A stretch of 36,152 bases of DNA from a virus (taxonomy: Duplodnaviria > Caudoviricetes). The notes below the pieces were generated by a model. That model was not told the DNA's origin and made no database searches. It saw only the letters and a list, made by a program, of their open reading frames with translations. The translations under genes were made by a program, and so were the position numbers. The stretch is taken from IMG/VR virus record IMGVR_UViG_3300032255_000010, positions 1-36,152 of that record; one strand, given 5' to 3'. Of this stretch, positions 1 through 36,033 are shown one piece after another. The first letter of the stretch is position 1. Each line of letters opens with the position of its first letter.

Positions 1-150
1 AATTTGCACACAATCCGCCATCTCATCGCATACAACGGCATCATAATTATCGTGCGGGTCTCTTACTCCAAGGATGAAAAACGGTATAACAATGCCAATC
101 AACTCGGACTGGCCTTCGTCGGCACTTTGTTGTTTTGTTGTGTCATTCAT
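1..150 (-). CDS. Cassette-borne hypothetical protein, runs off the window start (MNDTTKQQSADEGQSELIGIVIP...)
   Basis: ATG at 150 preceded by AAGGA, inside attC 84-207; frame open to position 1; translated by hand. Confidence 0.65.
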   Translation of the reverse strand, partial: MNDTTKQQSADEGQSELIGIVIPFFILGVRDPHDNYDAVVCDEMADCVQI

Positions 151-207
151 GTTCGTTGTTCCTTTTAAGTTCATAGTTAGGCCATCCGGTTATTGGCGCA
201 GTTATGT
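84..207 (+). repeat. attC-like site (124 bp)
   Basis: GTATAAC...GTTATGT; left arm GCCAAT(C)AAC(T)CGGA(C)TGGCC pairs with GGCCATCCGGTTATTGGC leaving three extrahelical bases. Confidence 0.9.
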
Positions 208-321
208 TGCGTTATTCAGAATCATATTCACGGACGAAACACAAAGACGTTCTTGATTCTGCCAAATGTATTCCTTTTCAAAATCAGCAACAGCAGTCTT
301 GGCTTGTTGATATGTCAATAG

Positions 322-633
322 TTAGCGTCTGCCGTTCCATTTCGAGACAACATCTTCTTTTGAGTCGCCATCAATAGTGGCTCCACAACCATCTTTATGG
401 CTTTGGCAGACAAACTGATAGCACTGGTTCGGGTGTGTGTGGTTTCCTCCGTACACCCGGCAAAATTCGCCTTCACGCCAAGTTACCCCGCTCGGATATA
501 AGGCATCCTCTAAGTCCTCTTTAGTCATCTGTTTTCCGCAAAACGGGCAGGGCAACATAACAATGCCTGTCAACTCTGACTGGCCTAACGCGGTGTCTTC
601 TTTTAGTGCCGTGGCTTCGCTATTCTTTGTCAT
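322..633 (-). CDS. Lar-family restriction-alleviation-like Zn-ribbon protein
   Basis: LPCPFCG...C-x5-CGA...WNGRR pattern; GGAG and ATG lie inside attC 555-687. Confidence 0.7.
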   Translation of the reverse strand: MTKNSEATALKEDTALGQSELTGIVMLPCPFCGKQMTKEDLEDALYPSGVTWREGEFCRVYGGNHTHPNQCYQFVCQSHKDGCGATIDGDSKEDVVSKWNGRR

Positions 634-687
634 GTATTTTATCTCCGTGGTTTCTATTCGGCCATCCGGTTACCGGCAACGTTATAT
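555..687 (+). repeat. attC-like site (133 bp)
   Basis: ACATAAC...GTTATAT; arms similar to the 84-207 site; GCAACATAAC is the reverse complement of GTTATGTTGC at 201. Confidence 0.9.
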
Positions 688-894
688 TTTTCTAGCAATT
701 CGGCCTGATTCTACATCCCATGCCGCACCAGGATTTTCAACAAAGTGATTCAATGCCCACGCGCACAAGCAAGATGAACACAAGCATCTTAAATAACCTA
801 AATTTGAAGCATTAGCTCTCAATGCTTCAATTAAAACATCTTTATCTTCCAAGCCAGTGGCATCATCTGGCAGCATTTTAATTTCTAGGCTCAT
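682..894 (-). CDS. Cassette-borne hypothetical protein
   Basis: 70-aa ORF whose TAA stop is the core site at 681-687. Confidence 0.65.
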   Translation of the reverse strand: MSLEIKMLPDDATGLEDKDVLIEALRANASNLGYLRCLCSSCLCAWALNHFVENPGAAWDVESGRIARKI

Positions 895-907
895 ATCAAT
901 CTCAAAA

Positions 908-914
908 ATATAAC
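908..914 (+). repeat. Truncated attC (R'' box only) at the distal end of array A
   Basis: AAAAATATAAC is complementary to GTTATATTTTT at 681 and is followed by AATG like other sites; no convincing right arm. Confidence 0.6.
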
Positions 915-920
915 AATGTT

Positions 921-1064
921 TTAATGACGACCTGATCCATCAACATCACTATGCTCATCATCTGAATTTCCAGAGCATCGCTCATCTTTTCCAAGCCACA
1001 TGAATAGCACTAATGTGAAAACAGCGCCAGTTATTGATATGTCAAGCCAGATATAACCAGTCAT
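921..1064 (-). CDS. Small membrane protein (47 aa, MTGYIWLDISITGAVFTLVLFMWLG...)
   Basis: Hand-translated; ATGA overlap with the upstream ORF; one hydrophobic segment. Confidence 0.5.
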   Translation of the reverse strand: MTGYIWLDISITGAVFTLVLFMWLGKDERCSGNSDDEHSDVDGSGRH

Positions 1065-1165
1065 TTTATTATCCCCAATTTGTATAGAAGTATAAGAATA
1101 ACCGCCTCAATAACTACAAACACAGCTATCACGCCTATTACTGAAAAAAATGCTAACCAATCCAT
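1061..1165 (-). CDS. Small membrane peptide (34 aa, MDWLAFFSVIGVIAVFVVIEAVILILLYKLGIIK)
   Basis: Hand-translated; abuts the stop of the upstream gene and overlaps the next start. Confidence 0.5.
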   Translation of the reverse strand: MDWLAFFSVIGVIAVFVVIEAVILILLYKLGIIK

Positions 1166-1471
1166 TTAGAATGGTATCGTATCGTCAAAATCATCACGCC
1201 CGCTATTATCGTGCTGTTTGACTGGTTGCTGCGCTTGCTGTTGTGAGTCGTCGAAAATAGAAAACATCACCATACTACGAGATTGCTTCCCTTCTGCTAC
1301 TGCTAGCATGTTCTGTTTGGCCAGTACTCCAGCAAGATTTACGCAAGGATCAATTAGCGCATATTCGCCGTTATTGTTGCTGAGGACAACCCCAAGCTTA
1401 ATATAATCGCCGCACTGCTTGCCATCTTTATTTGTATAATTACCAACTTTTGCTTTTAATTGCTTGCTCAT
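1166..1471 (-). CDS. Putative single-stranded DNA-binding protein
   Basis: Q-rich linker and acidic C-terminal tail DDFDDTIPF; follows the exonuclease gene. Confidence 0.65.
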   Translation of the reverse strand: MSKQLKAKVGNYTNKDGKQCGDYIKLGVVLSNNNGEYALIDPCVNLAGVLAKQNMLAVAEGKQSRSMVMFSIFDDSQQQAQQPVKQHDNSGRDDFDDTIPF

Positions 1472-1495
1472 TTGCTTTCCTTTATTTATTACGGT

Positions 1496-2110
1496 CTAAA
1501 TAAACTGCTTAATCTCATCAACCAGCTTAAAAAATTCAACTTCTCTTTTTTCTATCTGCTTGAAATATTCTGTACATTCATTCCGATTAACCCTGAACAC
1601 AAACAGTCTTGTTCGTTCTGGAAAGTCTGCGCAGTAACTTACGAAGTCAATCCACTTTCTCTCTGTCTTTAATAAGTTGAAATAAATCTGCCACTTATAT
1701 GCCGGATCTATATTGTTTCGCTTAATGTTGGCATAGTGCACATAATCTAAAACGGATTTTATTTCAATCAATCCATCATCATAAACAAGCCCATCAGGAG
1801 AGCAGCCAGAGTTGCCGCAGTCAAAAAAACCACCGTTAGATACTTCAACAAAATATTTGCTCTCATAAAGCCCTCTTGCGACTGGTTCCTGTTTGTGGCC
1901 GCGCTCTGTATGTTGATTACTGAATGATTCAGACATTGACCGCTTGCCAGTTACCTGTTCCCTTGCTATTGATACAGCTAGTTTTTTAGCAGGTTCACCA
2001 AACGCCTTACCAAAGTTAGCCATGATTTTAGGACAGCCTGACCCGGTAAGCTTGGCAATCCGCATATCAAGCCATTCATCAGTATTTTGCGAAACATCAT
2101 GAAACTGCAC
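1496..2110 (-). CDS. YqaJ/lambda-exonuclease family protein
   Basis: QNTDEWLDMR, RGHKQEP, SPDGL, IEIK and YKWQ motifs; GTG start after AAGGAG. Confidence 0.9.
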   Translation of the reverse strand: MQFHDVSQNTDEWLDMRIAKLTGSGCPKIMANFGKAFGEPAKKLAVSIAREQVTGKRSMSESFSNQHTERGHKQEPVARGLYESKYFVEVSNGGFFDCGNSGCSPDGLVYDDGLIEIKSVLDYVHYANIKRNNIDPAYKWQIYFNLLKTERKWIDFVSYCADFPERTRLFVFRVNRNECTEYFKQIEKREVEFFKLVDEIKQFI

Positions 2111-2609
2111 TAGCTTGCTCCTTAATGGTCTGCTCATCTTCTTGAGATACATCAACAAACTTTCTTACAGCATCAAGATTTTTATCACGCTTGTAAGCAG
2201 CAATAGCTCTATCCCATGCTTCAGTGCCACTCTGTAACCGTTTGCGGCGTATAGGAGGCTCTGCGCTAATCCTAAGGCCCTCTACAGTGTCACGCCCAAA
2301 TCTGACGTTTGTGTCGACATAAATAGTCACCTGAATATTTTGCCAATCGTCGATAAACGGGGAGTTAACCAGGCCCTTCATGATCTTTGAATTATGCGCG
2401 TTTAGAATCATAGGTTTTAACTTCTCCCCTGGGCGAAGCTCTTTATCAACAAAATAAGCCGTGTTAAAAATATCCTTTGACTTCTTTGTTTGGTCAGGTT
2501 CAAGGCGAACGTGAGAGATTGTTAATACTGTTGGCTCTACAATGTCTGCGCTGCTTAGGTATGGCGAGTTAAACGCCTTCCTGTAATGTGTTTTGTTTTC
2601 TTGATTCAT
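2097..2609 (-). CDS. Phage protein, probable ssDNA-annealing partner of the exonuclease
   Basis: Directly upstream of the exonuclease; GAGGTGG RBS; function from synteny only. Confidence 0.55.
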   Translation of the reverse strand: MNQENKTHYRKAFNSPYLSSADIVEPTVLTISHVRLEPDQTKKSKDIFNTAYFVDKELRPGEKLKPMILNAHNSKIMKGLVNSPFIDDWQNIQVTIYVDTNVRFGRDTVEGLRISAEPPIRRKRLQSGTEAWDRAIAAYKRDKNLDAVRKFVDVSQEDEQTIKEQASAVS

Positions 2610-2772
2610 ATTCCACCTCTTCAAATATTATCTTGTCTGTTTTCCCTTGTTTGCAACATCGCCATTCCCAGCAAGCTCCATGATCAACGTCATTCAATTT
2701 TATGTGTCTTAAGCAACTGTTCTTTTTTTCACAATTAACCCCAACACAACGATGATCTGAAAATGAGATCAT
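2569..2772 (-). CDS. Small Cys-rich hypothetical protein
   Basis: C-x4-C-x5-C-x-R pattern; coupled to neighbouring ORFs. Confidence 0.5.
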   Translation of the reverse strand: MISFSDHRCVGVNCEKKNSCLRHIKLNDVDHGACWEWRCCKQGKTDKIIFEEVEYESRKQNTLQEGV

Positions 2773-2945
2773 ATATCGCCCTGCCTATCTAGCAAGACAG
2801 GCATCGGATTGCAGCCATTACAGGTTCTGTCGCTTCCAGGTATCCCGCAGCCAAAAGCAGCGCAAGAATCAGGATCAAATGCCACTTGTAGGCCGAGATG
2901 CTCTCTTGATTTTTTGATAAATTCATCTGTATGGGTCTCTTTCAT
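2769..2945 (-). CDS. Small Cys-rich hypothetical protein (MKETHTDEF...)
   Basis: Internal ATG of the listed ORF, overlapping the end of the upstream gene. Confidence 0.45.
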   Translation of the reverse strand: MKETHTDEFIKKSREHLGLQVAFDPDSCAAFGCGIPGSDRTCNGCNPMPVLLDRQGDI

Positions 2946-3177
2946 TGTCTTTGATGCTTTCTGCCCGCTCTTTATTGTCAATATACTTCTCCAAATCTTC
3001 CTCCGTCTGTACATTAGCTTTTCTAAGCGGTCGTTGTCTATATCGTAAAGGCGGCTCATCTTCATAACTAAAATTTTTGCTCTTTTCAAACGCATCATTT
3101 TCTTCGCGCTCTTGACGATCACGTATATAATTCGCCAGTTTATTAATATGCTCAACTGTTGCTGTAATAGATTTCAT
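2923..3177 (-). CDS. Hypothetical protein, first gene of the leftward early operon
   Basis: 84-aa charged ORF just downstream of the leftward promoter. Confidence 0.55.
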   Translation of the reverse strand: MKSITATVEHINKLANYIRDRQEREENDAFEKSKNFSYEDEPPLRYRQRPLRKANVQTEEDLEKYIDNKERAESIKDNERDPYR

Positions 3178-3208
3178 TTTAATCGCCTGTTTCGCTTATC
3201 GTGTGACT

Positions 3209-3236
3209 ACTATAGCATTTAAAAAACAAAAAACAA
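3209..3236 (-). promoter_or_regulatory. Leftward sigma70-type promoter
   Basis: TTGTTT-N16-TATAGT with TGn extended -10. Confidence 0.55.
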
Positions 3237-3249
3237 GTATATTATTTGC

Positions 3250-3279
3250 TTGATTTTTGCATTTATTTTGCACTATAAT
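3250..3279 (+). promoter_or_regulatory. Rightward sigma70-type promoter
   Basis: TTGATT-N18-TATAAT upstream of the HTH gene. Confidence 0.6.
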
Positions 3280-3302
3280 AAAGACATGGAAAGGAGATTT
3301 GC

Positions 3303-3494
3303 TTGAACGAAAAAGAATATAAAGAACTACTAAAGAAGGTTAAGCGTAGATTAACATATAGCCATATTCCTGCTGTTGTTAAAGAATCTAGATTGCCTGA
3401 TAGCTGGCTTAGACGTGTATCAAGCGGGGATATAAAAAGGCCACGGCAGGAACGTCTAAAAATACTTGCTAAATATTTCGGGTTAGTAGAATGA
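3303..3494 (+). CDS. Cro-like helix-turn-helix regulator
   Basis: 63 aa; IPAVVKESRLPDSWLRRVSSGDIKRP HTH-like segment; AAGGAG RBS; first gene after the divergence point. Confidence 0.7.
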   Translation: MNEKEYKELLKKVKRRLTYSHIPAVVKESRLPDSWLRRVSSGDIKRPRQERLKILAKYFGLVE

Positions 3495-3517
3495 TATCGC
3501 TTGGCACAAGCATTGCA

Positions 3518-3604
3518 ATATAACGTCATTTATTAAACGGAGAGACACCGCAGTATAGAAAAACACCTAAGTATCTGAGTCCGATTTGAGGAATTTTGTT
3601 ATGT
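3518..3604 (-). repeat. attC-like site (87 bp, partly degenerate)
   Basis: Minus strand ACATAAC...GTTATAT; visibly homologous to 4118-4202. Confidence 0.75.
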
Positions 3605-3626
3605 GCAGCTAACTGAGTAAAACGGT

Positions 3627-3809
3627 ATGACATTTGATGATTGGTGGAAAAAAGAAAGTTGATGGGGTAGCGAGACTTTGGATGAATATCAGTTGGCAAA
3701 AGCAGCATGGAATAAGGCAATAGAGCAAGCCGCTAATGAAGTAAGGGCAAGCCATGGCCATTGTGAGACATGGCTTGAAGTTTCTGACATTGAAGAATTA
3801 AGCGCATAA
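3627..3809 (+). pseudogene. Cassette gene interrupted by in-frame TGA at 3660 (MTFDDWWKKES*WGSETLDEYQLAKAAWNKA...)
   Basis: ATG and core-site TAA are in frame across 61 codons with one internal stop. Confidence 0.6.
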
Positions 3810-3861
3810 CGTTTAATTTCAGCCGCGCGGTTTTTGCGTCGGCTGGAAATTATTGTTATGC
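3804..3861 (-). repeat. attC-like site (58 bp)
   Basis: Minus strand GCATAAC-AATAATTT(C)CAGCCG(A)CGC...GCGGCTGAAATTAAAC-GTTATGC. Confidence 0.92.
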
Positions 3862-3877
3862 GATTTTTGGATGATAT

Positions 3878-4123
3878 ATGATGACACAGGACGAAATACA
3901 AGAGATCAAAGACTTGATCAGTGATGAGTACGACAAATGGCGGCTCGACGCCGGTGACTGGATAGGATATGCCGAGGAATTGGTTGAAGAGGTGGAGCGG
4001 CTTAGAGATGAACTGGATACGATCCGGATGCACGCCAATCCAGACATTATTGATTCGGATTGTTTTGTCTGTATATCAGCAACAGAATTTGGTCAAGTCA
4101 TGAATAGGGTTTTTGGTGCATAA
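3878..4123 (+). CDS. Cassette-borne hypothetical protein
   Basis: 81-aa ORF filling the space between two attC sites; stop in the core site. Confidence 0.7.
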   Translation: MMTQDEIQEIKDLISDEYDKWRLDAGDWIGYAEELVEEVERLRDELDTIRMHANPDIIDSDCFVCISATEFGQVMNRVFGA

Positions 4124-4202
4124 CGTCAATTTTAAGCGGCGAACCACTGAAGTATAAAAGAACGCCGCGTTAACTGAGTCCGCTTGAAAATTTTTGTTAG
4201 GC
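4118..4202 (-). repeat. attC-like site (85 bp)
   Basis: Minus strand GCCTAAC-AAAAATTTT(C)AAGCGG(A)C...GCCGCTTAAAATTGAC-GTTATGC. Confidence 0.92.
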
Positions 4203-4225
4203 GGGCTACGAAGTGAGGAAACACG

Positions 4226-4417
4226 ATGGATTGGACGGATAAAACTTTTTGTAATCACGGGATATCTTTTTCAAATGAATGCGAGAGATGCGAAATAGTT
4301 GGGCTTGAAGAAAGCCTTAAATGGATGAAGCGGAAAGTTTCCCGCGATGAGAAGCGATTAGCTGAACTCGAAGACAAGCACACGCCTGAAATTGTTAAGA
4401 AGATGCGTAACGCCTAA
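4226..4417 (+). CDS. Cassette-borne hypothetical protein (C-x-H...C-x2-C)
   Basis: GAGGA RBS; stop in the core site. Confidence 0.7.
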   Translation: MDWTDKTFCNHGISFSNECERCEIVGLEESLKWMKRKVSRDEKRLAELEDKHTPEIVKKMRNA

Positions 4418-4472
4418 CCGCGCAAAACACCGAGCGAGCAAAGCGAGTCCGAGTGATTTTGCTTTGTTATGT
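4412..4472 (-). repeat. attC-like site (61 bp)
   Basis: Minus strand ACATAAC-AAAGCAAAA(T)CAC(T)CGG...TCGGTGTTTTGCGCG-GTTAGGC. Confidence 0.88.
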
Positions 4473-4498
4473 GGAAACTACAAATGATTAGTTGACAG

Positions 4499-4927
4499 TT
4501 GAAAAACGAAAATTACAAAGATTGGCCACTTTTTGATGATATGCCAAGCGGCTGGACGATAGACAAAACCTGCGGGTCTCCACTGGCTGGATATGTATTT
4601 ATCAGCGATTGGAGGAGCATTCTGCGCGGCGGGAAACGGGCACTGCTTAGGGTGAGAAAGCCGAAACAGCAGTTGTGCCTCGATGCTCAACCCGTTACCA
4701 AAATGGAATCAGCTGCTGACGAAACGGAAGCGGCAAAAATAGAGCAACCATACCCTGTGAGAACCGTAAACGAACTAGCTAGGGAGCGGTTTAAGCTGAG
4801 GCTGTTAAATGATATTCGTTGTGATTTGATGATCTGCGAATTAGAGGGATGGGGGAAAATGGAATACATAAACGAGATTAGGAGGCTGGTAAATGAAATT
4901 GGCAGCCGAGTTACGATAGACACATAA
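4499..4927 (+). CDS. Cassette-borne hypothetical protein
   Basis: 142-aa ORF ending in the core site of the attI-like element; start uncertain. Confidence 0.7.
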   Translation: MKNENYKDWPLFDDMPSGWTIDKTCGSPLAGYVFISDWRSILRGGKRALLRVRKPKQQLCLDAQPVTKMESAADETEAAKIEQPYPVRTVNELARERFKLRLLNDIRCDLMICELEGWGKMEYINEIRRLVNEIGSRVTIDT

Positions 4928-4978
4928 CACTGGGCTATACACACATGATAAGATAGGAGTAATAAAAACAATGGTTTA
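4922..4978 (-). other. attI-like recombination site heading array B
   Basis: Minus strand GTATAGC-CCAGT-GTTATGT (imperfect L box, 5-bp spacer, R box); 45/54 identical to 31009-31062. Confidence 0.75.
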
Positions 4979-5594
4979 CAGCGGCTGACATTCCATTACA
5001 GCTATGCATAAAGCCAGGTGGCGCTATATTTCCAGAAATAATATTGTTAATTATTGAGAAAATAGGCTATAGTTAATTTTTTATAAATTTCTGGCAATAA
5101 TAAGCAAGGCAAATAAAAACCCACCTATTATAGAGCGACGATCTCTAAGGTGGGTTTAAAGTGTCGAGATGACTGAAGAAGTATCGTTTAATTTAATCTT
5201 CTTGTCAACCTCAATACTAAAACTCTATCTAATTATAGAGTTAACCCAAAAAATAAATCGTCCCCGGTCGGGTATACCAACGGCAGCGGGAATCTGTGTA
5301 GACGGCAATAACTAGCCCTTTGAGACCGAGGGAGCCAAGCGTAACCAGCACGTGAAGGCACAAAATCGGGTTAGTGGTGATCTTTAACGATGCAGGGTGA
5401 CACTCCTGTCCAATACCTGGGTAAGTGTGTTCTGTAACAATATAGTTATTGCTGACTAGCGGAAAGGGACAAATTACAATACTCCCTTTTAAATGATTTA
5501 TGATATGACTGTGATTAATATAGATCACCCTAAGGTCAGTGATATGTATTGCCTAAATAAAATTAACAGTTATGAATATAATAAAGGGGATAAT

Positions 5595-6131
5595 ATGAGA
5601 CTACATAAAGACGACATTTCAGACATAGTTGATCAGTTATTCGAAAAGTTAATTGCTGAAAAGAAAAGTAGAAAACAGCAAAATCTAAGAAGTGCAAGAA
5701 AACCAAATTTTAGTGGTTATCCAGATTGGTTTGAGGGTTTATGGGTAGATTATCCAAGACGTAAGGATGGAAATAGTAAGGCAAAAACGTATGCGTGCTG
5801 CATGCGCAGGATTAAAGAAGGGTATAGTGAAAATTATTTGCATGAGAAAACCAGAGTGTATGCAGCCCATTGTGAATCTGAGGGGAAAATTGGGACTAAT
5901 TTTGTATTAATGGGGAGTACGTTTTTTGGTAGCGATTTGAGATTTGATGATATATGGACTATAGCTAAAACTAATAAATCAGATAATCCAGAGTTTAAGA
6001 TTCCAAGAAATAACGAAGAATTATGGAATTTTGCAAAAAAATATAATTACCCATCACCTGGATCACGAACATTCAGCGAATATCGTAAATTATTAGATAA
6101 TGAGGTTGAGAAACGACTAAAATCAAAATAG
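5595..6131 (+). CDS. Putative phage replication initiator-like protein
   Basis: FEGLWVDYPRRK...SKAK motif typical of phage initiator C-terminal domains; AAGGGG RBS before 5595; position before the nin region. Confidence 0.55.
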   Translation: MRLHKDDISDIVDQLFEKLIAEKKSRKQQNLRSARKPNFSGYPDWFEGLWVDYPRRKDGNSKAKTYACCMRRIKEGYSENYLHEKTRVYAAHCESEGKIGTNFVLMGSTFFGSDLRFDDIWTIAKTNKSDNPEFKIPRNNEELWNFAKKYNYPSPGSRTFSEYRKLLDNEVEKRLKSK

Positions 6132-6139
6132 GAGGAACT

Positions 6140-6328
6140 GTGTATAATAAAATACAGGCAGGTGAATTTGTAACGGTAGCGTCTTTTGATGACCCTGACA
6201 AAGTAATGTTTACCGGGATAGTGTTGTCGTATAATCGTACAGACAGGACATACACAATCAATCCAGGCGTGGATCTAAGAAACCGTGATGTAAACGAGTG
6301 TAGAGTTGCGAGAGTTGAAGATGACTAA
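6140..6328 (+). CDS. Hypothetical protein
   Basis: AGGAGG RBS, GTG start. Confidence 0.6.
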   Translation: MYNKIQAGEFVTVASFDDPDKVMFTGIVLSYNRTDRTYTINPGVDLRNRDVNECRVARVEDD

Positions 6329-6482
6329 ACCAAAAAAACATCAGGCATTTTCAATATCTCGATTCAAGGATAGGGTGAAATCATATCCAGAATTAACTAT
6401 TGAAGACCGTAAAAAAGTTGAAAAGCGCAGGCGACTGGAAGAGATTATGGAAAATAAACAACAAGAAAACGACATCTGGTGA
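6321..6482 (+). CDS. Hypothetical protein (53 aa, MTKPKKHQAF...)
   Basis: Hand-translated; overlaps both neighbours, GTGA junction with ninG. Confidence 0.5.
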   Translation: MTKPKKHQAFSISRFKDRVKSYPELTIEDRKKVEKRRRLEEIMENKQQENDIW

Positions 6483-7096: not shown

Positions 7097-7160
7097 TAAT
7101 CTTAAATAACCTACAATTATGTAACGTTATGGGTGAACTAAAATCATTAACATTAATTTA

Positions 7161-7466
7161 TTGCGGCCGAAAAAGTGTAACTGCCTGTTATGGGCGTGGC
7201 TGATGTGGTTTAATTGCGGTGGTTGTTTGGTTTGGCGCTGGTCTTATGTTGGTTGGTGGCCGCATGTGTTTTGGTCGCCTGATAGTTGCAGGTTGTTTGA
7301 GTATGTGCCCAATGAGTATGAATGCGGACGATGGTTTCCGCCGTTAATATTTAAAGGCCATGTTCAGGAAATGCTAACTGAGGTTGTTTGCAAAAGTGTT
7401 GTGATTGATGGTATGCATAAAAAAACGTGCATGGATCTGACGCAGCATCTAAAGCGACAACTGTGA
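7161..7466 (+). CDS. Trp/Cys-rich hypothetical protein
   Basis: ORF only; start uncertain. Confidence 0.5.
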   Translation: MRPKKCNCLLWAWLMWFNCGGCLVWRWSYVGWWPHVFWSPDSCRLFEYVPNEYECGRWFPPLIFKGHVQEMLTEVVCKSVVIDGMHKKTCMDLTQHLKRQL

Positions 7467-7484
7467 TTATTTAGGTAACTGAAA

Positions 7485-8573: not shown

Positions 8574-8574
8574 G

Positions 8575-28571: not shown

Positions 28572-28588
28572 ATAAAAGTTTAATAAAA

Positions 28589-28846: not shown

Positions 28847-29179
28847 GTGATTGAACTAGCAGTATTTTCGTATATTTCTGGTGTTGTTCTGTGGGTATTT
28901 TATCTCGCAGCGATGAAGTTAAAGGCCCATAAAGATGAGCTAACCGGCGTAGCTAAATTTTTTGGTTATCAGATCATATTTGTCGGATTGGTTATTGATG
29001 TAGCATTCAATATTGTTGTAGGTTCAATTTTATTTATGGCATTGCCAGTGGGCGGCCTGACATTCACATCAAGATTGATTCATTATAAAAACTCTGGCGG
29101 GTATCGAGGGAAAGTACAAAAATGGTTTTGTGGGAATTTGTTGGACATGTTTGATCCATCTGGACCACATTGTAAATAG
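28847..29179 (+). CDS. Membrane protein
   Basis: Two to three hydrophobic segments; DPSGPHC end. Confidence 0.65.
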   Translation: MIELAVFSYISGVVLWVFYLAAMKLKAHKDELTGVAKFFGYQIIFVGLVIDVAFNIVVGSILFMALPVGGLTFTSRLIHYKNSGGYRGKVQKWFCGNLLDMFDPSGPHCK

Positions 29180-29713
29180 GTGATCAAAATGGCACTTAAT
29201 AGTGATGATATCGCCCTTTTAGACCCAGAAATGCAGGAGCGGGTAGAGGAGTTCATTGCCCATTGTAAATCTGCACAGTTCGGTGTGTTGCTGTATAGCG
29301 GTCGACGATCTTTTGAAGATCAGGCAAGGCTTTTCAGACAGGGCCGTTCGATGGGCTCAATCAAGGCAAAGGCTGCTGAGTTGCGTGATAAGTGGCAGCG
29401 GCCTGACCTGGCTGACATCCTGATTGGCGTAGGCCCACAGAAGGGAAAAAAGATTGTCACAAACGCTGGTCCTGGCCAGTCTGACCATAACTATGGCGGT
29501 GCGGTCGATGGCGTACCTATGGTTGGCGGCAAGCCCGTCTGGGGCACTGACTCATACGAGGATAAGGAAGTTTGGCACCAATACGGAATGATTGCGATAA
29601 GTGCTGGGCTTGAATGGGCGGGTAACTGGACGAGCTTCAGGGAGTATCCACATTTAAAGCTGCCGAGCATGGATTGGCGCGAGCTGATTAAGGATTCTGA
29701 ATATGAGCTATAA
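29180..29713 (+). CDS. Endolysin, M15-family peptidase
   Basis: RSFEDQARL, VTNAGPGQSDHNYGGAVD, LEWAGNW...EYPH. Confidence 0.9.
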   Translation: MIKMALNSDDIALLDPEMQERVEEFIAHCKSAQFGVLLYSGRRSFEDQARLFRQGRSMGSIKAKAAELRDKWQRPDLADILIGVGPQKGKKIVTNAGPGQSDHNYGGAVDGVPMVGGKPVWGTDSYEDKEVWHQYGMIAISAGLEWAGNWTSFREYPHLKLPSMDWRELIKDSEYEL

Positions 29714-29912
29714 CGGAATCATAAAGAAAAGTCGTTCGCTTGACCTAGCCGCATTAAGTCAGTTTGTTGACGCAGGCGCTCTTGCCATATTGGCGTATTC
29801 CCCCGAAGACCTTGGGATTACCGTTCCTACCTATGCAGTTGTGCGGGTAGCAATCAACGTACTGCAGGCGTATTTGCGCTTCAAGACAACAGGCCCTGTA
29901 GGAGATAAATAA
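29703..29912 (+). CDS. Putative holin
   Basis: Hydrophobic segments, LRFKTTGPV end; follows the endolysin. Confidence 0.6.
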   Translation: MSYNGIIKKSRSLDLAALSQFVDAGALAILAYSPEDLGITVPTYAVVRVAINVLQAYLRFKTTGPVGDK

Positions 29913-30121
29913 TGATTAGTAAACTAATGGGTTTGGTAACTGGAATTATGGCGGCTATAGCGCTGTTCTTTAAGGTTAAAGCCGATTCTACTCGTAACAA
30001 AGCTCAGAAAGAGAAGATCGACAAATATGAGGAGGTTATCGACGATGTGGAAACTGCTAGGCGTACTCGCGCTGATGATAATGAGCGGATGCGCGTTGAA
30101 GACAAATACACCCGTAAGTAA
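29912..30121 (+). CDS. Putative inner-membrane spanin (Rz-like)
   Basis: N-terminal TM helix plus charged helical tail; overlaps a lipoprotein gene. Confidence 0.7.
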   Translation: MISKLMGLVTGIMAAIALFFKVKADSTRNKAQKEKIDKYEEVIDDVETARRTRADDNERMRVEDKYTRK

Positions 30122-30227
30122 TTACTGTCTCCTCTATAATCCTATCTACACGTCACCAGATGACACTAGAGAGACTATAGATCAGGTTGTTGATAACAAT
30201 GTAGTCTACGACAAACTATGCGAATAG
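30045..30227 (+). CDS. Putative outer-membrane spanin lipoprotein (Rz1-like)
   Basis: GAGGAGG RBS, signal peptide with lipobox MSGC, overlapping frame. Confidence 0.75.
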   Translation: MWKLLGVLALMIMSGCALKTNTPVSNYCLLYNPIYTSPDDTRETIDQVVDNNVVYDKLCE

Positions 30228-30288
30228 TTGACAATATTTTGACTAACAATCAATCATATTTAGACATTAGCACATAAGCAATTATCTT

Positions 30289-30331
30289 TTTTACAACCTA
30301 ACTCAAATAAATATTGGGTTAGGTTGTAAAA
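30289..30331. terminator. Inverted repeat between convergent operons (probable bidirectional terminator)
   Basis: TTTTACAACCTAACTCAA / TTGGGTTAGGTTGTAAAA. Confidence 0.55.
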
Positions 30332-30355
30332 GAAACGCACTAGAAAGCACACCAA

Positions 30356-30691
30356 CTATTTTCTATACTCCCTGAGTTCTTCACGTTTAGTAGCCTGCTG
30401 GGTCTGCCATAATCCAGCGCCCATTTTAGCTATTTCAAGGTTCCATCTGCATAGCTCAGACTCCCCCACAGCGTCAGCAAGCGCCGATAATAGCTTGATG
30501 TACTCATCGTCCGCCCTAGCCTCTCTTTCCTGTGCTGCGGCGGTTTTATGCTCAGGCTCATATTTTTTCATTATGATGGCAAGCTTAGACTTTTTGAAAT
30601 CTTCCAGATAAACAGCCTCTCTTTTAGCTTTGGCGTATTTCGCCGCTATCTCTCTCAGCTCGCTTAATCGTCTTTCTATGCTATTGTCCAT
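30356..30691 (-). CDS. Coiled-coil hypothetical phage protein
   Basis: 111-aa helical ORF at the end of the leftward operon. Confidence 0.7.
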   Translation of the reverse strand: MDNSIERRLSELREIAAKYAKAKREAVYLEDFKKSKLAIIMKKYEPEHKTAAAQEREARADDEYIKLLSALADAVGESELCRWNLEIAKMGAGLWQTQQATKREELREYRK

Positions 30692-30710
30692 TTATCACCC
30701 ATTTCACATA

Positions 30711-31016
30711 TTATTCATCAAACCGCTTAAACCTTGGTAATGACTTCCTGATGCTGTTCATTAAAAATGTTATCCCGTGAATCCCAATCGGCTCATCGTT
30801 GCAATAAATGCTGTAGTTATCAATTCTATTTCCTTCAAGACACTCAAATATTGCGACTTCTTTTGTGTGCCTGCGTTCTATTGTGATTTTGATGTAAGGA
30901 TCAATATCTACAAAGTCAGTATGCTGATCCTTTTCAGCGAGTCTTTTTCTTTCTTTTGCGGCGTTTGCTTGTAATGACCACAGTTTTCGTGCTTTTTTAT
31001 TTGCTCTATAAGTCAT
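30711..31016 (-). CDS. Hypothetical protein starting inside the attI-like element (MTYRANKK...)
   Basis: AGGGAG RBS and ATG at 31016. Confidence 0.6.
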   Translation of the reverse strand: MTYRANKKARKLWSLQANAAKERKRLAEKDQHTDFVDIDPYIKITIERRHTKEVAIFECLEGNRIDNYSIYCNDEPIGIHGITFLMNSIRKSLPRFKRFDE

Positions 31017-31065
31017 TGTTTTTACGCTCCCTACCTTATCAGGTGTGTATAGCCCAGTGTTAGGT
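31009..31065 (+). other. attI-like recombination site heading array A
   Basis: GTATAGC-CCAGT-GTTAGGT; inverted copy of 4925-4978. Confidence 0.75.
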
Positions 31066-31083
31066 GACAACGGGGGTTATTAA

Positions 31084-31548
31084 ATGATTGAACATTTGCC
31101 ATTAGCTTTATCATCTCTTAGTACGGCTCTTGATATTGGAAAGAGCTTGGTAGGTATCCGCGATACTGCAAAACTTCAAGACGAGATTGTGAAATTCAAC
31201 AGCATCATAATCGGTGCGCAATCCGAAATAATGGCGTCTCAAAATGAACAAGCGTCTATGGTTAGAAAAATAGGAGAGCTTGAAAAAGAATGTATGCGCC
31301 TTAGTGATTGGGAAGCTGAAAGAAAAAGATACGCGAGAAAGGAAGTCGCTACTGGTGTTTTTGTATACATAGAAAATGACTATGTGGGCAAATTTGAAAA
31401 CGCGCATAAATATTGCTGCAATTGTCTCGATAATTACAAGAAGTCCACACTTCAGCAATTCAATATTACAGAAGGTCGGAAAATTTGGCTTTCGTGTCAT
31501 AACAAATGTCCTGATTTAATATTTCGCCACTACAATGATGTCACCTAA
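31084..31548 (+). CDS. Canonically oriented cassette gene: coiled-coil plus Zn-ribbon hypothetical protein
   Basis: Bounded by GTTAGGTGACA and TGTCACCTAAC; stop in R''; CCNC...CHNKC. Confidence 0.8.
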   Translation: MIEHLPLALSSLSTALDIGKSLVGIRDTAKLQDEIVKFNSIIIGAQSEIMASQNEQASMVRKIGELEKECMRLSDWEAERKRYARKEVATGVFVYIENDYVGKFENAHKYCCNCLDNYKKSTLQQFNITEGRKIWLSCHNKCPDLIFRHYNDVT

Positions 31549-31653
31549 CAAAAGCGGTCAAGAAGGACAGTCCTACGCGGCGTTCGTTTGTGCTGAAAAA
31601 CCTAGCACAAGCCTCTCACCGCTACGGCATGCCTCTTACCGCTGGCGTTATAC
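31543..31653 (+). repeat. attC-like site (111 bp)
   Basis: ACCTAAC-AAAAGCGGT(C)AAGA...TCTTACCGCTGGC-GTTATAC. Confidence 0.9.
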
Positions 31654-32190
31654 CGCACTGCCAAGCTCGGCGGTACATTCAACCTCGTTACCCCATACGT
31701 CCCAGCCTTCGTGAGGATCACGGCAGAATAACTCTACTCTTGGTCTATCTCCGCTCACCTCAACAATCATCTCTCTAAACATATTTGGCTTTTCCGAATG
31801 CTTAAGCCGCTTATGCTCAAAAGCAGTTCTATCAATCCTTTTCTCGGCCTTAAGTGTGCCTCGGCGACAAAACAGTAAATGCTCGGTAGTTTGCACATAT
31901 GTTCCACCGATACCTATTCCGTGAGGTGGCTTCACCCATGTCAACATACAGCTTGGCTTAAAGCCCCACGCCTTAGCAACTTCGTAGCTTTCAGCTATGT
32001 ATTTATTTATCACCCACAGGTAGAGGTGTGCGTTTTTGTCCGCTATCGCCTTTACTGGCAGCGCCTTAATTTCGTCAATGCTCATTGTCGGGTAGGGCAG
32101 TGGCTTCGATGGCCCGTTGCTATTCCAATCTGGTCCGCGCTTAACGTCCCAAGGCGGGTCGGCGTAAATCACTTGGTATTTCTTTGTCAT
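31648..32190 (-). CDS. MT-A70-family adenine methyltransferase
   Basis: YQVIYADPPW, YPTMS, LYLW, TEHLL, HSEKP, RVELFCR...GWDVWGNE; CAGGAG RBS. Confidence 0.92.
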   Translation of the reverse strand: MTKKYQVIYADPPWDVKRGPDWNSNGPSKPLPYPTMSIDEIKALPVKAIADKNAHLYLWVINKYIAESYEVAKAWGFKPSCMLTWVKPPHGIGIGGTYVQTTEHLLFCRRGTLKAEKRIDRTAFEHKRLKHSEKPNMFREMIVEVSGDRPRVELFCRDPHEGWDVWGNEVECTAELGSAV

Positions 32191-32215
32191 AAATTTTAAC
32201 TCCTGTGTATGCGCG

Positions 32216-32294
32216 GTATAACAAGGCAAATTAACAGCGACATTCACCGCGTCGCTTCGCTCCTTGTTCATGCGCGTTATTTGCGATGTTATGC
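32216..32294 (+). repeat. attC-like site (79 bp)
   Basis: GTATAAC-AAGGCAAAT(T)AAC(A)GCG...CGCGTTATTTGCGAT-GTTATGC. Confidence 0.9.
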
Positions 32295-32561
32295 GTCATT
32301 CTCAGCCAGCCAATCAATGCACTTTTGGCGGAATTTCCCCGCAATCTCTAAAGCTTTATCTTTTGTGGTCCATCCTGAAATTCCCTCCCAGCCAACGGTT
32401 TGCCCGTTTACTGTCGGGCACCAATAATTTATTGGCCGCCCATGTGGGTTTTGTTCACTGTCGCTCATGTCTTCAGGCCACGTTCCGGCTTGGTTCCACA
32501 ACATTTCCTGCTTCACTCCAATTTTACCGCTTGCCAGACCTGCAATTTGTTGTCTATCCAT
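32289..32561 (-). CDS. Cassette-borne hypothetical protein
   Basis: GGAGG RBS immediately after attC; stop in the core site. Confidence 0.7.
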   Translation of the reverse strand: MDRQQIAGLASGKIGVKQEMLWNQAGTWPEDMSDSEQNPHGRPINYWCPTVNGQTVGWEGISGWTTKDKALEIAGKFRQKCIDWLAENDA

Positions 32562-32574
32562 TATCAATCCTCCC

Positions 32575-32649
32575 GCATAACAATGCGCTTAAGTTCGCTT
32601 CACTTCGTTCCGCCGGACGGCTTCGCCACCGCTTAGCTTGGCGTTAGGT
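32575..32649 (+). repeat. attC-like site (75 bp)
   Basis: GCATAAC-AATGCGCTTAAG...CTTAGCTTGGC-GTTAGGT. Confidence 0.88.
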
Positions 32650-32799
32650 GGACTTAATGTCCGAGTGTATCCAGCAAAGCTTTCCTAAAATTGCCCACGC
32701 TATACCGTTGGTTAAGCTCCGCTCCTCTATCCCAATTCCTAGAGTTCTGGCAATAGCAAATCCTAGGAAGCCCCAGCCCATTAGTTCATTTGCGCTCAT
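32644..32799 (-). CDS. Small hydrophobic protein, second gene of a two-gene cassette
   Basis: ATGA overlap with the upstream gene; stop in the core site. Confidence 0.5.
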   Translation of the reverse strand: MSANELMGWGFLGFAIARTLGIGIEERSLTNGIAWAILGKLCWIHSDIKST

Positions 32800-33056
32800 C
32801 TCCATGGCCAAATCATAGCGAGCCGATAGAATCGATGTTTCATAAGCCAGTAAGTTATCGGTCCGCATTCAATCCAATCAAAGTTTGGCGTCGCTTCAAT
32901 TATCCGATCAAGGTCTTCTTGCTTTGTGCATTTAACGCTGGCTGTGCATCCGTTCCAATCCGTATAAACAGCATAAAAGCGTGGAGTAAAAAGCCACCTA
33001 ACAACAGGCTCTAAGGGACCACTGGCCGCGACGTTCGTTGCATTCTGCTTGTTCAT
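32796..33056 (-). CDS. Cassette-borne hypothetical protein starting inside attC
   Basis: ATG in the loop of attC 32996-33118. Confidence 0.65.
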   Translation of the reverse strand: MNKQNATNVAASGPLEPVVRWLFTPRFYAVYTDWNGCTASVKCTKQEDLDRIIEATPNFDWIECGPITYWLMKHRFYRLAMIWPWR

Positions 33057-33118
33057 AGTCTCAATACTCTTCGTTTTAATTCAGCGTGGCCAGTGGCCCC
33101 TAAGCCTTACCGTTATAC
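32996..33118 (+). repeat. attC-like site (123 bp)
   Basis: ACCTAAC-AACAGGCTCTAAGGGACCACTGGCC...GGCCAGTGGCCCCTAAGCCTTACC-GTTATAC. Confidence 0.88.
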
Positions 33119-33424
33119 ATCTAATTCTGTTACAGTCTTTCTGGCTCTCGCGCCAGGTTTAGGGTAGTCATAATCATCGTTATCGGCAAAATCAGTCATA
33201 AACTCACCTGCAGGGTTATCGGGTAAAAATGCAATAGCGTGGTAGTGTTCTGGGTCTGCGTAAAACCACACGGTATTAACAAGTTTGTTTAAGTAGATTA
33301 CTATTTCGTCGGGCGTTAGCGGCTTCCCATGCTTTAATATTGCCGGACCATTAGCCGTAACACATTGAGAGAAAACACTATAGTCATGTATAACAAGTGC
33401 ATTAACATCGTTCGTTTCACTCAC
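33113..33424 (-). CDS. Cassette-borne hypothetical protein starting inside attC
   Basis: AAGGAGGT SD and GTG within attC 33388-33463; stop in the core site. Confidence 0.7.
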   Translation of the reverse strand: MSETNDVNALVIHDYSVFSQCVTANGPAILKHGKPLTPDEIVIYLNKLVNTVWFYADPEHYHAIAFLPDNPAGEFMTDFADNDDYDYPKPGARARKTVTELDV

Positions 33425-33463
33425 TGCGACCTCCTTCGTCGGCGCGTTATGCAGGCGTTATGT
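33388..33463 (+). repeat. attC-like site (76 bp)
   Basis: GTATAAC-AAGTGCAT(T)AAC...GTTATGCAGGC-GTTATGT. Confidence 0.88.
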
Positions 33464-34111
33464 TGCACTAATACGCTCTTGTGCAATCTTAAAGTATTCT
33501 TCGTCTAGCTCTATACCGATAAATTTGCGGTTTAAGTTTTTACATGCAACGCCTGTTGAACCGCTGCCCATAAACGGGTCTAAAATTATCCCGTCCTTAT
33601 TAGATAGTCCGCTAATCAATGTACTTAATAAATCAACGGGCTTTTCAGCTCCGTGGTGCTCTTTTTTTAATGGGGCTTTTATTATCGTTGGAATATGGGT
33701 TAGTTTTTCTTTATTCAGCTTTAAACTGTCTCTATTTGCGTAAAAAATAATCTCATGCTGCTTTCGAAAAGGGTTTCCCATTCCTATTCTGCCCTTATCC
33801 CATACCACTATATTTTTTTGCTTCCATTCATAAAATAAGCCCATTAACACAGCGCTATAAACATCATCACAAAACACAAGAATAGGCGCATTTGGCTTTA
33901 ATAAGCGTCCCCACTCTTTCTTTATTGCTGAAAAATAAAACTCCTGTATAGCTAAATCAGAAAGCCGGTTTACAACTTTTCGCCCGAATGCGTGGACGGT
34001 TGGGCTTGTGTAAGGCGGGTCGGTTAAAATCATATCAACCGAACCATCTGGTATTTCTTTCATCATCTCAAGGCAATCGCCTTGCATCAGTGTAATCATA
34101 GTGGTTTCCAT
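33458..34111 (-). CDS. N6-adenine/N4-cytosine DNA methyltransferase (beta class)
   Basis: GDCLE, TDPPY, H.AEKP, LDPFMGSGSTG, FIGIEL. Confidence 0.93.
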   Translation of the reverse strand: METTMITLMQGDCLEMMKEIPDGSVDMILTDPPYTSPTVHAFGRKVVNRLSDLAIQEFYFSAIKKEWGRLLKPNAPILVFCDDVYSAVLMGLFYEWKQKNIVVWDKGRIGMGNPFRKQHEIIFYANRDSLKLNKEKLTHIPTIIKAPLKKEHHGAEKPVDLLSTLISGLSNKDGIILDPFMGSGSTGVACKNLNRKFIGIELDEEYFKIAQERISAT

Positions 34112-34128
34112 AGTTCAGTGTAGGTGCA

Positions 34129-34188
34129 GCCTAACAATGGCATTAACGCGGACAACAAAAAGCGTTGCCTGTTATGCGGGCGTTATGC
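34129..34188 (+). repeat. attC-like site (60 bp)
   Basis: GCCTAAC-AATGGCAT(T)AACGCGGACAAC...GTTGCCTGTTATGCGGGC-GTTATGC. Confidence 0.88.
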
Positions 34189-34593
34189 GTCAATTTCAGC
34201 TATCTGTTCTAACGCATTCCTAATGTTCAAGGCTGTGCCAAACAAGTGGTTATTTCCGTCCGGCGCACCATCGTAGTTGTCATGCCAAAAATCCCAGTCG
34301 TATGCACTTCTTGGCATGGGTTTTGGGTTGTACTCAATATGCCACCCGTCCGGGGCTAGACCATCAATAAACGAAGTCAGTACATTTATCCTGCCTTTGG
34401 CGGCAACTAGCGATTCTATGGAGGCAATAGCAGCGTCAATATCAAGCCCTAAGCTTTTCGGTTCTGGCTGCTCACCATCTCCACCCCTACGCCATTCGTT
34501 GTAGCGTTTTAAACGCATAACAAGGCAATTTAACTCGGACCCAACTACCGCAGTGGTCGCTTCAAGTTTTATGGTTTCTGATAAGTTCATCAT
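34183..34593 (-). CDS. Cassette-borne hypothetical protein starting inside attC
   Basis: AGGA and ATG in the loop of attC 34515-34647; stop in the core site. Confidence 0.7.
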   Translation of the reverse strand: MMNLSETIKLEATTAVVGSELNCLVMRLKRYNEWRRGGDGEQPEPKSLGLDIDAAIASIESLVAAKGRINVLTSFIDGLAPDGWHIEYNPKPMPRSAYDWDFWHDNYDGAPDGNNHLFGTALNIRNALEQIAEIDA

Positions 34594-34647
34594 TCGCTTA
34601 GTCCTGTGGTTTTGTTCCCGTTGGTCCGGTTAATTGCAACGTTATGT
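34515..34647 (+). repeat. attC-like site (133 bp)
   Basis: GCATAAC-AAGGCAATT(T)AAC(T)CGGAC(C)CAAC...GTTGGTCCGGTTAATTGCAAC-GTTATGT. Confidence 0.9.
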
Positions 34648-34656
34648 GCCTAGGTG

Positions 34657-34911
34657 CTAATCATCTAGCGATAGCATCGACAGCACCATTTTTAAAGCCT
34701 TGCCAGCGCCTGGCGTTTTCATGTCCTCTGCCATTTTCAGCGTTAGAATTATTTTAAAAAGTGCGTCGGCAGGTTTTGGCCAGTTTCCAGTTCGCTCCCA
34801 CCGGCCCCATGTGTCGCTGGCGTTTTGTCCTGTCTGTCCAGCAAACAGCTCACCGGCCTCACGTTGCGTGAGCCCCATCGTCTCACGCACTTCTATTGCT
34901 TTATTTCTCAT
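34657..34911 (-). CDS. XRE-family HTH regulator
   Basis: EVRETMGLTQREAGELF...TWGRWERTG. Confidence 0.8.
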   Translation of the reverse strand: MRNKAIEVRETMGLTQREAGELFAGQTGQNASDTWGRWERTGNWPKPADALFKIILTLKMAEDMKTPGAGKALKMVLSMLSLDD

Positions 34912-35155
34912 ACGACCCGATTTTATTTTTATTATCAACAGACCCGTTATTAATTATGCTCATTACGTTTTCTGGAGCAATGATGCGCGATTCGTTGCCT
35001 CCAAATTTTGCTTGATACTGCACTGCATAAGCTGCTGCATTCCATGGGTCTTCACCTAGGGACTTATTTCTTGCGATTATTTTTTTGCCACTGCTTGCTG
35101 TTATCTCGTAGCCGCCGCCTTGCCGTCTGTTGTATATCACTGAAATCATTATCAT
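34901..35155 (-). CDS. Hypothetical protein
   Basis: Coupled ORF in the 4-gene cassette. Confidence 0.6.
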   Translation of the reverse strand: MIMISVIYNRRQGGGYEITASSGKKIIARNKSLGEDPWNAAAYAVQYQAKFGGNESRIIAPENVMSIINNGSVDNKNKIGSYEK

Positions 35156-35484
35156 GATTGCGCCCTCTTTTCTAATGCTCTTGATATAAAGCTGTACCCG
35201 TTATTTTCATCAAAAAGAGAGTATACGAAATGAAGTTTTTTCCATCCGAGCGCTATATACAATTCTTGAATCTCTTTTATATCAGAAGCAAGGTTGCCAG
35301 TATTTTTATATATTTCATTCCCTGCATGATCTTTAATCGAGGCTACACTGCACTCGTAGCCATATTCGTTGCATTCGCCAATATTTACTTCTGCTGTTAA
35401 AACCGCTGACGGCATAATAAATTCGTGCATATCGCTTGGCGTACATGCGGGATAAATATTTATTGATACTGATTCAATTCTCAT
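35152..35484 (-). CDS. Hypothetical protein
   Basis: AGGA RBS; ATGA overlap downstream. Confidence 0.65.
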   Translation of the reverse strand: MRIESVSINIYPACTPSDMHEFIMPSAVLTAEVNIGECNEYGYECSVASIKDHAGNEIYKNTGNLASDIKEIQELYIALGWKKLHFVYSLFDENNGYSFISRALEKRAQS

Positions 35485-35496
35485 TTTGCTGTCCTG

Positions 35497-35859
35497 TTAT
35501 TTTTGTGAGTTGATGAAACGGCTAACTTCGCTGTTCAATGTGATTAGTTCAAGTAAGTCAGTTTTCTTTGTTTTTGCGCTTAGCGCTGCTTCAGCTTTTG
35601 CTATGTAAGCCTTTGCTGTTGAAAGATCGCTTACTTCTGCACGTTCAACATTGATTTTTTGACTAGCAACTAAGCGAGCGACTTTAGATTTCAGCGCGTC
35701 TAGCTTCATTCCAGCATCTGCATGCTTCGCAACTTTTTTTACTGTTACGAACAGAGCGTTATAACCGGCTTTAGCAGTTGCAAGCTCAGCGTCAGACATA
35801 AGGCCGATGTGTTGATCTAGGAAATCTTCGCAGTATTCGTTGAAAGTAAGCTTGCTCAT
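35497..35859 (-). CDS. Hypothetical protein
   Basis: AAGGAG RBS; first gene after the cassette promoter. Confidence 0.75.
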   Translation of the reverse strand: MSKLTFNEYCEDFLDQHIGLMSDAELATAKAGYNALFVTVKKVAKHADAGMKLDALKSKVARLVASQKINVERAEVSDLSTAKAYIAKAEAALSAKTKKTDLLELITLNSEVSRFINSQK

Positions 35860-35909
35860 TTTCTTTCTCCTTGCTTGGCTTCTGGTTTATTCCGTCTGCC
35901 TATGATTTA

Positions 35910-35938
35910 AATATACACGACACAGTGTCGTATTGCAA
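35910..35938 (-). promoter_or_regulatory. sigma70 promoter with palindromic operator in the spacer
   Basis: TTGCAA-N17-TATATT; ACGACAC-A-GTGTCGT at 35917-35931. Confidence 0.8.
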
Positions 35939-35973
35939 GGGCTTTTTTAATCATTAGCAAAAATAATCACGGC

Positions 35974-36033
35974 ACATAACAAACGCATACAGCGGACTCA
36001 GCTACGCTACGCCGTTGATGCGCAACGTTAGAT
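35974..36033 (+). repeat. attC-like site (60 bp)
   Basis: ACATAAC-AAACGCATACAGCGG...CCGTTGATGCGCAAC-GTTAGAT; GGCACATAAC matches GTTATGTGCC at 34641. Confidence 0.9.

Follow-up and report, generated by a model that had tools for sequence, protein, structure and literature searches.

The DNA analyzed here, referred to as the window, is an entire virus record of 36,152 nt (IMG/VR IMGVR_UViG_3300032255_000010), linear and estimated to be 97% complete. Its matches to PHROGs describe the head, tail and lysis module of a P22-like podovirus as well as an exonuclease, a replication protein and NinG; an integrase is not among them. The early genes diverge between positions 3177 (− strand) and 3303 (+ strand). 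The window also contains two arrays of gene cassettes, here named array A and array B, which are punctuated by attC sites (the recombination hairpins of integrons) and are each closed by a site resembling attI, the integron insertion site. An earlier note on this DNA had proposed that the cassette genes are systematically reversed relative to those of canonical integrons, with the attC sites of array A on the + strand and its genes on the − strand, and the converse in array B.

To locate the attC sites, we used a covariance model, R1, which was trained only on 22 canonical sites (7 from Vibrio anguillarum, 13 from Shewanella and 2 from phage TJE1) whose orientation was fixed by annotated canonical arrays. 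The window was scanned at E ≤ 1 with filters off. Exactly 14 attC sites were detected, ten on the + strand in array A (31543–36033 and 84–687) and four on the − strand in array B (3518–4472), in agreement with the strands given in the earlier note. The anatomy of attC was found in all 14: R'' (RYYYAAC) and R' (GTTRRRY), L''/L', an extra base in the left arm and a variable loop. The extra L-box base is carried by the called left arm, as is the motif TAACAA, which is present on that arm in 14 of 14 sites, on the other arm in none, and on the left arm of all 22 training sites. A position-weight test, which scored 20/20 in leave-one-out, agreed with R1 at 11 of the 11 window sites scored. Top-strand GC skew was negative in 12/14 sites, the direction reported for attC sites of mobile integrons (PMC5027507). 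An Rfam search of the window gave no match.

Relative to this polarity, the genes lie on the recombinogenic (bottom) strand in 13 of the 14 bounded cassettes. Only one cassette has its gene on the top strand with its own attC behind it, namely the first of array A (A1, open reading frame [ORF] 31084–31548, +). The proposal that all cassette genes are reversed thus stands for 13/14 and fails for A1, which is canonical. Eleven ORFs had been said to take their TAA stop from the GTTA that begins a cassette (682, 3809, 4123, 4417, 4927, 31648, 32289, 32644, 33113, 33458 and 34183); all eleven stops are indeed formed by GTTA, and the ORF ending at 3809 is interrupted by an in-frame TGA at 3660–3662. 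A junction-ending reverse frame covering at least 60% of the cassette was found in 11/14 window cassettes, where 0.34 would be expected by chance, compared with 1 of 18 control cassettes (Vibrio 1/8, Shewanella 0/10; Fisher p = 2.9e-5). The two reversed cassettes whose main ORF does not stop at the junction are one with a Lar-like gene (201–557) and one with four ORFs (34641–35976). The sole control case is a reversed methyltransferase cassette in a V. anguillarum array (L001, 29527–30195), with its stop at the junction.

Five ORFs start inside the loop of the preceding attC and read through its L''/R'' (starts at 150, 633, 33056, 33424 and 34593), and most of these starts are preceded by a purine-rich leader; a possible sixth, at 32271, has no leader. 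Genes that begin in this way stay intact after recombination only if the far arm is cut, which supports the called polarity. The strand calls of a model trained on canonical sites, the starts inside hairpins, the linkage of genes to their hairpins and strand assays of sites from phage PH101 (discussed below) together support the reversal. Judging from the ORF layout, transcription would run from the divergent early region towards the attI-like sites. Promoter scans and terminator scans of the window yielded counts at chance level. No cassette promoter (Pc) reading from attI into an array is evident, and the gene direction makes a Pc useless for 13/14 cassettes. The idea that orientation tracks replication was rejected, because the arrays run in opposite directions on the map yet do not differ relative to gene direction.

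Features of the two cassette arrays (A, then B, each from its attI-like site outward; R1, site called by the covariance model)
Feature	Coordinates	Strand	Remark
attI-like site A	31006..31066	+	L GTATAGC 31047-31053, 5-nt spacer, R GTTAGGT 31059-31065
A1: 154-aa gene, phrog_1244	31084..31548	+	canonical, bacterial-type, antisense to phage genes
attC of A1	31543..31653	+	R1; family occurs in canonical gammaproteobacterial cassettes
A2: MT-A70 DNA methyltransferase	31648..32271	-	reversed; likely start 32190
attC	32216..32294	+	R1
A3: 92-aa ORF	32289..32567	-	reversed; junction stop
attC	32575..32649	+	R1
A4: overlapping ORFs 32796-33056 and 32644-32868	32644..33056	-	former starts inside attC, latter has junction stop
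attC	32996..33118	+	weakest R1 score, 18.5 bits
A5: 103-aa ORF	33113..33424	-	ribosome-binding site and GTG start inside attC
attC	33388..33463	+	R1
A6: N6/N4 DNA methyltransferase	33458..34111	-	reversed
attC	34129..34188	+	R1
A7: 136-aa ORF	34183..34593	-	start inside attC
attC	34515..34647	+	R1
A8: 1.3-kb cassette, four ORFs	34641..35976	-	
attC	35974..36033	+	R1; next cassette leaves contig end
attC	84..207	+	R1; holds ribosome-binding site and ATG (150) of ORF leaving contig start
Cassette with Lar-like gene 322-633	202..633	-	gene starts inside attC 555-687
attC	555..687	+	R1
Last cassette of array A: 70-aa ORF	682..894	-	junction stop
Decayed distal attC	907..948	+	left arm only; array boundary ~949; core match 4/4
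attI-like site B	4921..4981	-	inverted copy of site A
B1: 142-aa ORF	4499..4927	+	reversed; stop = attI junction
attC	4412..4472	-	R1
B2: 63-aa ORF	4226..4417	+	reversed
attC	4118..4202	-	R1
B3: 81-aa ORF	3878..4123	+	reversed
attC	3804..3861	-	R1
B4: ORF interrupted by in-frame TGA	3627..3809	+	TGA at 3660-3662
attC, distal end of array B	3518..3604	-	R1

A1 adjoins attI-like site A, and the end of its gene falls within the TAAC of the A1 attC. The four ORFs of A8 lie at 34657–34938 (weakly MqsA/HTH-like), 34901–35155, 35152–35484 and 35497–35859; a candidate promoter (35910–35938, −) has a perfect palindrome between its −35 and −10 elements, and A8 may be a module that regulates itself and also drives the cassettes downstream of it. 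The Lar-like cassette has a possible 38-aa ORF with a junction stop (202–318). Array B DNA had no match in GenBank phages, and the cassette proteins of ORFs 34183–34593 and 4499–4927 had no relatives among the viral contigs searched.

Array A is divided over both ends of the record, and joining the ends gives neither a continuous ORF nor more than a 1/4 core match. Contigs of run X1, which may be the source of the window and is not independent of it, extend past the two ends by 363 and 477 nt; since they overrun ends that do not adjoin, cassettes are missing between them. In run X1, the Lar-like cassette (window 234–684) is also present as a second copy that differs slightly, and depth is doubled at the contig end (36051–36152). 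Duplicated cassettes probably broke the assembly there. Outside the arrays, about 330 nt between NinG and the late genes (7140–7470) are GT-skewed, with no protein family and no Rfam match.

A layout like that of the window was also found in a cultured phage, PH101, where the top strands of attC1 and attC2 are on the + strand and all annotated genes around them on the − strand. With IntI1, Qi et al. (2023) reported lower recombination for the top strands of the phage attC sites tested than for their bottom strands (PMC9892861); in the supplement, we took the forward primers as the bottom strand because the aadA7 control reads that way. By analogy with these assayed sites, those of the window may be recombined by IntI as folded bottom strands. 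TJE1, from the same paper, has canonical orientation.

The record of PH101 (Pseudoalteromonas phage H101, KR534323; 1920–3988) has four attC sites on the + strand and all genes on the − strand; two of the four sites were assayed in PMC9892861, and two are identical copies. Other phage arrays show related arrangements. A viral contig (L087, 49–3118) with seven sites on the − strand and genes on the + strand is another reversed array. In a published phage cluster of attC sites lacking an integrase (CALIN; MW202573, 2072–2703), attC matches on the − strand lie among genes on the + strand, and it looks reversed as well. No description of reversed phage cassettes was found in the literature covered, which did not extend to subscription articles, supplements of bioRxiv preprints or the Dryad annotation file of PMC9892861.

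The site that closes both arrays is a 61-nt inverted repeat (4921–4981 vs 31006–31066, 82% identity). It forms no hairpin and has the layout of a simple site, GTATAGC followed by 5 bases and GTTRRRY. Its assignment as attI-like is based on this layout and on its behavior as a breakpoint; an identical site beside a known intI was not found. A scan of IMG/VR for the site revealed one other record (G001), a different virus with a primase and siphovirus-like long-tail genes, which has only the attI region and one structural stretch in common with the window. The site and the gene behind it are 95% identical in the two viruses over 353 nt, ending at GTTA, beyond which the G001 array is wholly different; a junction-ending reverse frame is present in 6 of its 7 cassettes. 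No IntI match was found in G001. The stop of homology at the attI GTTA, together with a contig of run X2 that joins attI to the sixth cassette, supports the earlier claim that new cassettes land at attI, distal to the promoter.

Attention may also be drawn to the surroundings of the site. Site A lies in the 5' leader of ORF 30711–31019 (−) and thus holds the ribosome-binding site of that gene (window 31006–31063); site and ORF have moved together between unrelated phages. On a viral contig (L045, 4020–4060), another attI-like simple site apparently closes a reversed MT-A70 array, before a gene like that at 1166–1471 of the window.

Several observations mark the cassettes as mobile units. When the four bases behind each cassette-start GTTA are compared with the R'' of the same cassette, 53/60 positions match, against 25/56 within sites; the same test gave 25/28 in G001. 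Because the start cores match their own R'', the units were once circular. Such complementarity is symmetric and shows circular units only, and was rejected as a proof of polarity by itself. The cassettes are units bounded by G^TT with complementary R'/R'' cores, and their variation is exact to the junction. In run X2, which belongs to a study separate from that of the possible source of the window, one contig joins 31058 to 33457, that is, attI straight to the A6 methyltransferase cassette with five cassettes absent, and a second joins 32292 to 33110 with two cassettes absent, both at GTTA. A third passes from attC 33388–33463 to sequence found at position 949 of the window, at the distal boundary of array A. 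Each of these is one contig of low depth. Run X5 contains cassettes 33111–33435, 34182–34410 and 298–686 with foreign flanks, starting or ending at junctions; A5 occurs in other contexts in both runs. In the pieces from X2 and X5, the gene keeps its upstream hairpin. Likewise, two viral MT-A70 cassettes (L045 and L047) are 86% identical starting from the upstream hairpin's TAAC, and cease to be similar at the TAAC that follows the stop codon.

Cassettes have also been exchanged with bacteria. The A1 protein has 67 homologs besides itself. An alignment-based search with A1 gave ten bacterial loci; a single-protein scan of bacterial genome contigs with A1 found nothing. A canonical attC context was observed in at least 5 of the 10 loci (L034, L037 and L041 by R1, L042 and L043 by inspection of the flanks), and L041, a Scalindua integron, also has intI. 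Of 401 gammaproteobacterial genomes sampled, 13 contain sites of the A1 attC family, mostly next to genes on the same strand, and nine of the 13 have an IntI over the cut-off. Similar sites are present in many other contigs of the metagenome runs examined, and the A1 attC had no match in plasmids or in five genomes carrying A1 homologs. A1, which is of bacterial type and occupies the newest position, is a case of the host cassettes that had been expected to lie antisense in the phage.

The converse expectation, phage cassettes antisense in a host integron, was met with in the L041 integron itself, a chance find in one genome. There, in a Candidatus Scalindua contig (JAIQZU010000081.1; 5112–6336), the integron is chromosomal, with intI beside miaA, and two reversed cassettes at its head precede three canonical ones. 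The first encodes a radical-SAM protein (phrog_9298) with its TAA stop at the attI junction, and the second matches phrog_29525. The first gene is 85% identical to a gene of a viral contig and 64% identical to one in the seven-site reversed viral array. The phage-specific cassette pool of the earlier note may therefore be retained as a phage-biased one; it is not sealed, since A1 and the Scalindua case show that cassettes cross both ways.

No integrase gene was found to accompany the arrays. A six-frame search of the record for PF00589 gave no match (14/14 control genomes were positive), and tblastn with two IntI proteins gave none better than E 0.14. The intI of a complete integron is thus missing from the record as assembled, with its gap in array A.

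The reading we favor, with a probability of about 0.7, is that the phage carries two attI-docked arrays, with 13/14 cassettes reversed and no integrase gene, on which an integron integrase of the host likely acts in trans. IntI is reported to use attC as a folded bottom strand, to recombine it with attI in double-stranded form and to be able to act in trans (PMC5027507, PMC8946536). A gammaproteobacterium carrying a chromosomal integron is the likely host; searches with NinG and the capsid named no host. In the proposed mechanism, host IntI would insert and excise cassettes at the two phage attI sites, at the far ends of the early transcription units. Each reversed cassette is hairpin-first: its bottom strand is mRNA-like, the loop often contributes a ribosome-binding site and the initial codons, and the stop comes from the junction TTA. 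Phage-type cassettes would be read from upstream phage promoters, one perhaps inside A8. A captured host cassette would be antisense and silent in the phage, and a phage cassette in a chromosomal integron would be antisense to Pc.

A number of observations weigh against this reading. An attI pattern scan of metagenomes returned 16 loci, 13 of them unrelated (without IntI or attC) and the other three the window phage and G001. No attI-like site within 4 mismatches was present upstream of intI at any of 16 loci (10 genomes), nor was one found in two small orders (0/7 and 0/17 genomes). An attI site is reportedly specific to its integrase (PMC8946536), and, no bacterial match having turned up, these searches did not reveal the cognate enzyme. 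The record is linear, and the gap inside array A could hold a gene. The first two X2 joints are single contigs (depth 7.4 and 4.9, sides of 50 and 31 nt, 85% likeness). The core test fails at A6 (2/4) and at the contig end (1/4), and the hairpin before the window MT-A70 gene differs from that of L045/L047; because of the differing hairpins and these two junctions, other recombination also acts. Most homologs of the cassette genes have no attC and are ordinary phage genes (12/14 MT-A70 loci, 4/4 loci in cultured Vibrio phages with A6-like N6/N4 genes, 11/12 radical-SAM loci), so that the cassette format was acquired gene by gene. No array was present near the exonuclease gene in the DNA examined of seven exonuclease-related phages; three whole records of such relatives had no R1 match. 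Finally, folding energy does not separate the strands: the bottom strand is lower in 3/6 sites and within 0.2 kcal/mol in the remainder. Better folding than in shuffled sequences was seen in only 2/6.

Such near-equal energies in three of the six sites speak for the alternative that the strand call is wrong, with recombination through the other strand and canonical genes. This alternative is very improbable and already largely refuted, given that A1 is canonical in the same array with the same attC polarity, attI is at the end where the called polarity would place it, genes and their preceding hairpins move together, start codons lie inside hairpins, and PH101 sites have been assayed (PMC9892861). 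The integrase could instead come from another mobile element (a co-infecting phage, a satellite or a gene in the gap) and not from the host chromosome, which would fit an attI that is common to two unrelated phages and has no match found in a host. We consider this unlikely: IntI matches are absent from both the window record and G001, the gap falls between cassettes inside array A, and A1 and its attC are of chromosomal type. In addition, a gammaproteobacterial intI locus (L081) has a GTATAG-N-5nt-GTT layout like that of the phage site, although it is a lead only. A slightly poorer candidate is that the arrays are relics, reshuffled today without an integrase by phage homologous recombination through similar hairpins. 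The phage does encode an exonuclease and NinG, one cassette gene is interrupted, half of the distal attC is lost and hybrid hairpins occur; against this, breakpoints have only the 4-nt GTTA in common and recur exactly there across runs, the R'/R'' cores still match at 53/60, and attI is still a breakpoint although it has no hairpin homology to attC.

If the host integrase does serve the arrays, one may tentatively picture a mirror-image integron economy in which hairpin-first cassettes, bringing along a translation start of their own, work in phage arrays alone and fall silent behind Pc, host cassettes (including anti-phage ones) are silent in the phage, and the flip is a firewall within an exchange of cassettes in both directions. 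That the flip was selected as a firewall is speculative. With two orphan DNA methyltransferases, one Lar-like gene and small unknowns, the cargo suggests counter-defense and host-adaptation genes. Integrons are known as bacterial anti-phage libraries, and a phage equipped with attI sites and a mirrored pool would put the enzyme behind those libraries to use in shuffling counter-defense genes. Site-specific recombination would then explain part of the mosaicism of phage early regions. The arrays are also a possible source of the minority of reversed cassettes in bacterial arrays, and, if the picture is true, reversed cassettes heading chromosomal integrons are a dated record of phage infection. 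As ordinary phage genes occur both with and without a preceding hairpin, the system bears on cassette genesis, and PH101 is a cultured phage with the same layout.

With at least two clustered attC sites and no intI, the window arrays are CALINs by definition; they work like an integron platform, and depart from a complete integron in the lack of intI and in gene orientation. Phage attC clusters have already been published (PMC9892861). Those virulent-phage CALINs are similar in having attC clusters without intI, orphan DNA methyltransferase cargo and bottom-strand recombination with IntI1. In the available part of that paper, neither gene reversal, or the polarity of genes versus attC, nor attI is described for them, and TJE1 and PH101 are called typical, whereas PH101 is reversed here. 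The window phage differs in its 14 sites, its two attI-like sites and the comparative evidence for insertion at attI. What is added here is a common attI with different arrays, population joints, two-way exchange and a reading of the PH101 assay with polarity.

Sedentary chromosomal and class 1 integrons resemble the window arrays in attC anatomy, in a simple-site attI made up of an L box, 5 nt and GTT, in circular cores and in insertion at attI (PMC5027507, PMC8946536). In contrast to them, the window phage has no intI, no evident Pc, genes on the bottom strand in 13/14 cassettes and translation starting in a hairpin, and its newest cassette would be the last in the transcript instead of the first. 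In the "reverse" or inverted-integrase integrons of Treponema, intI is oriented in the same way as the cassette genes and attC sites (PMC3607928, PMC4889954); this type was rejected for the window arrays, which have no intI and in which the reversal is that of gene versus attC. Single attC sites lacking an integrase (SALINs) and attG insertions likewise involve IntI acting on cassettes away from the platform (bioRxiv 10.1101/2022.09.11.507474), as reported for isolated cassettes at short genomic GWT sites, whereas the window has ordered arrays of mirrored genes behind a conserved attI.

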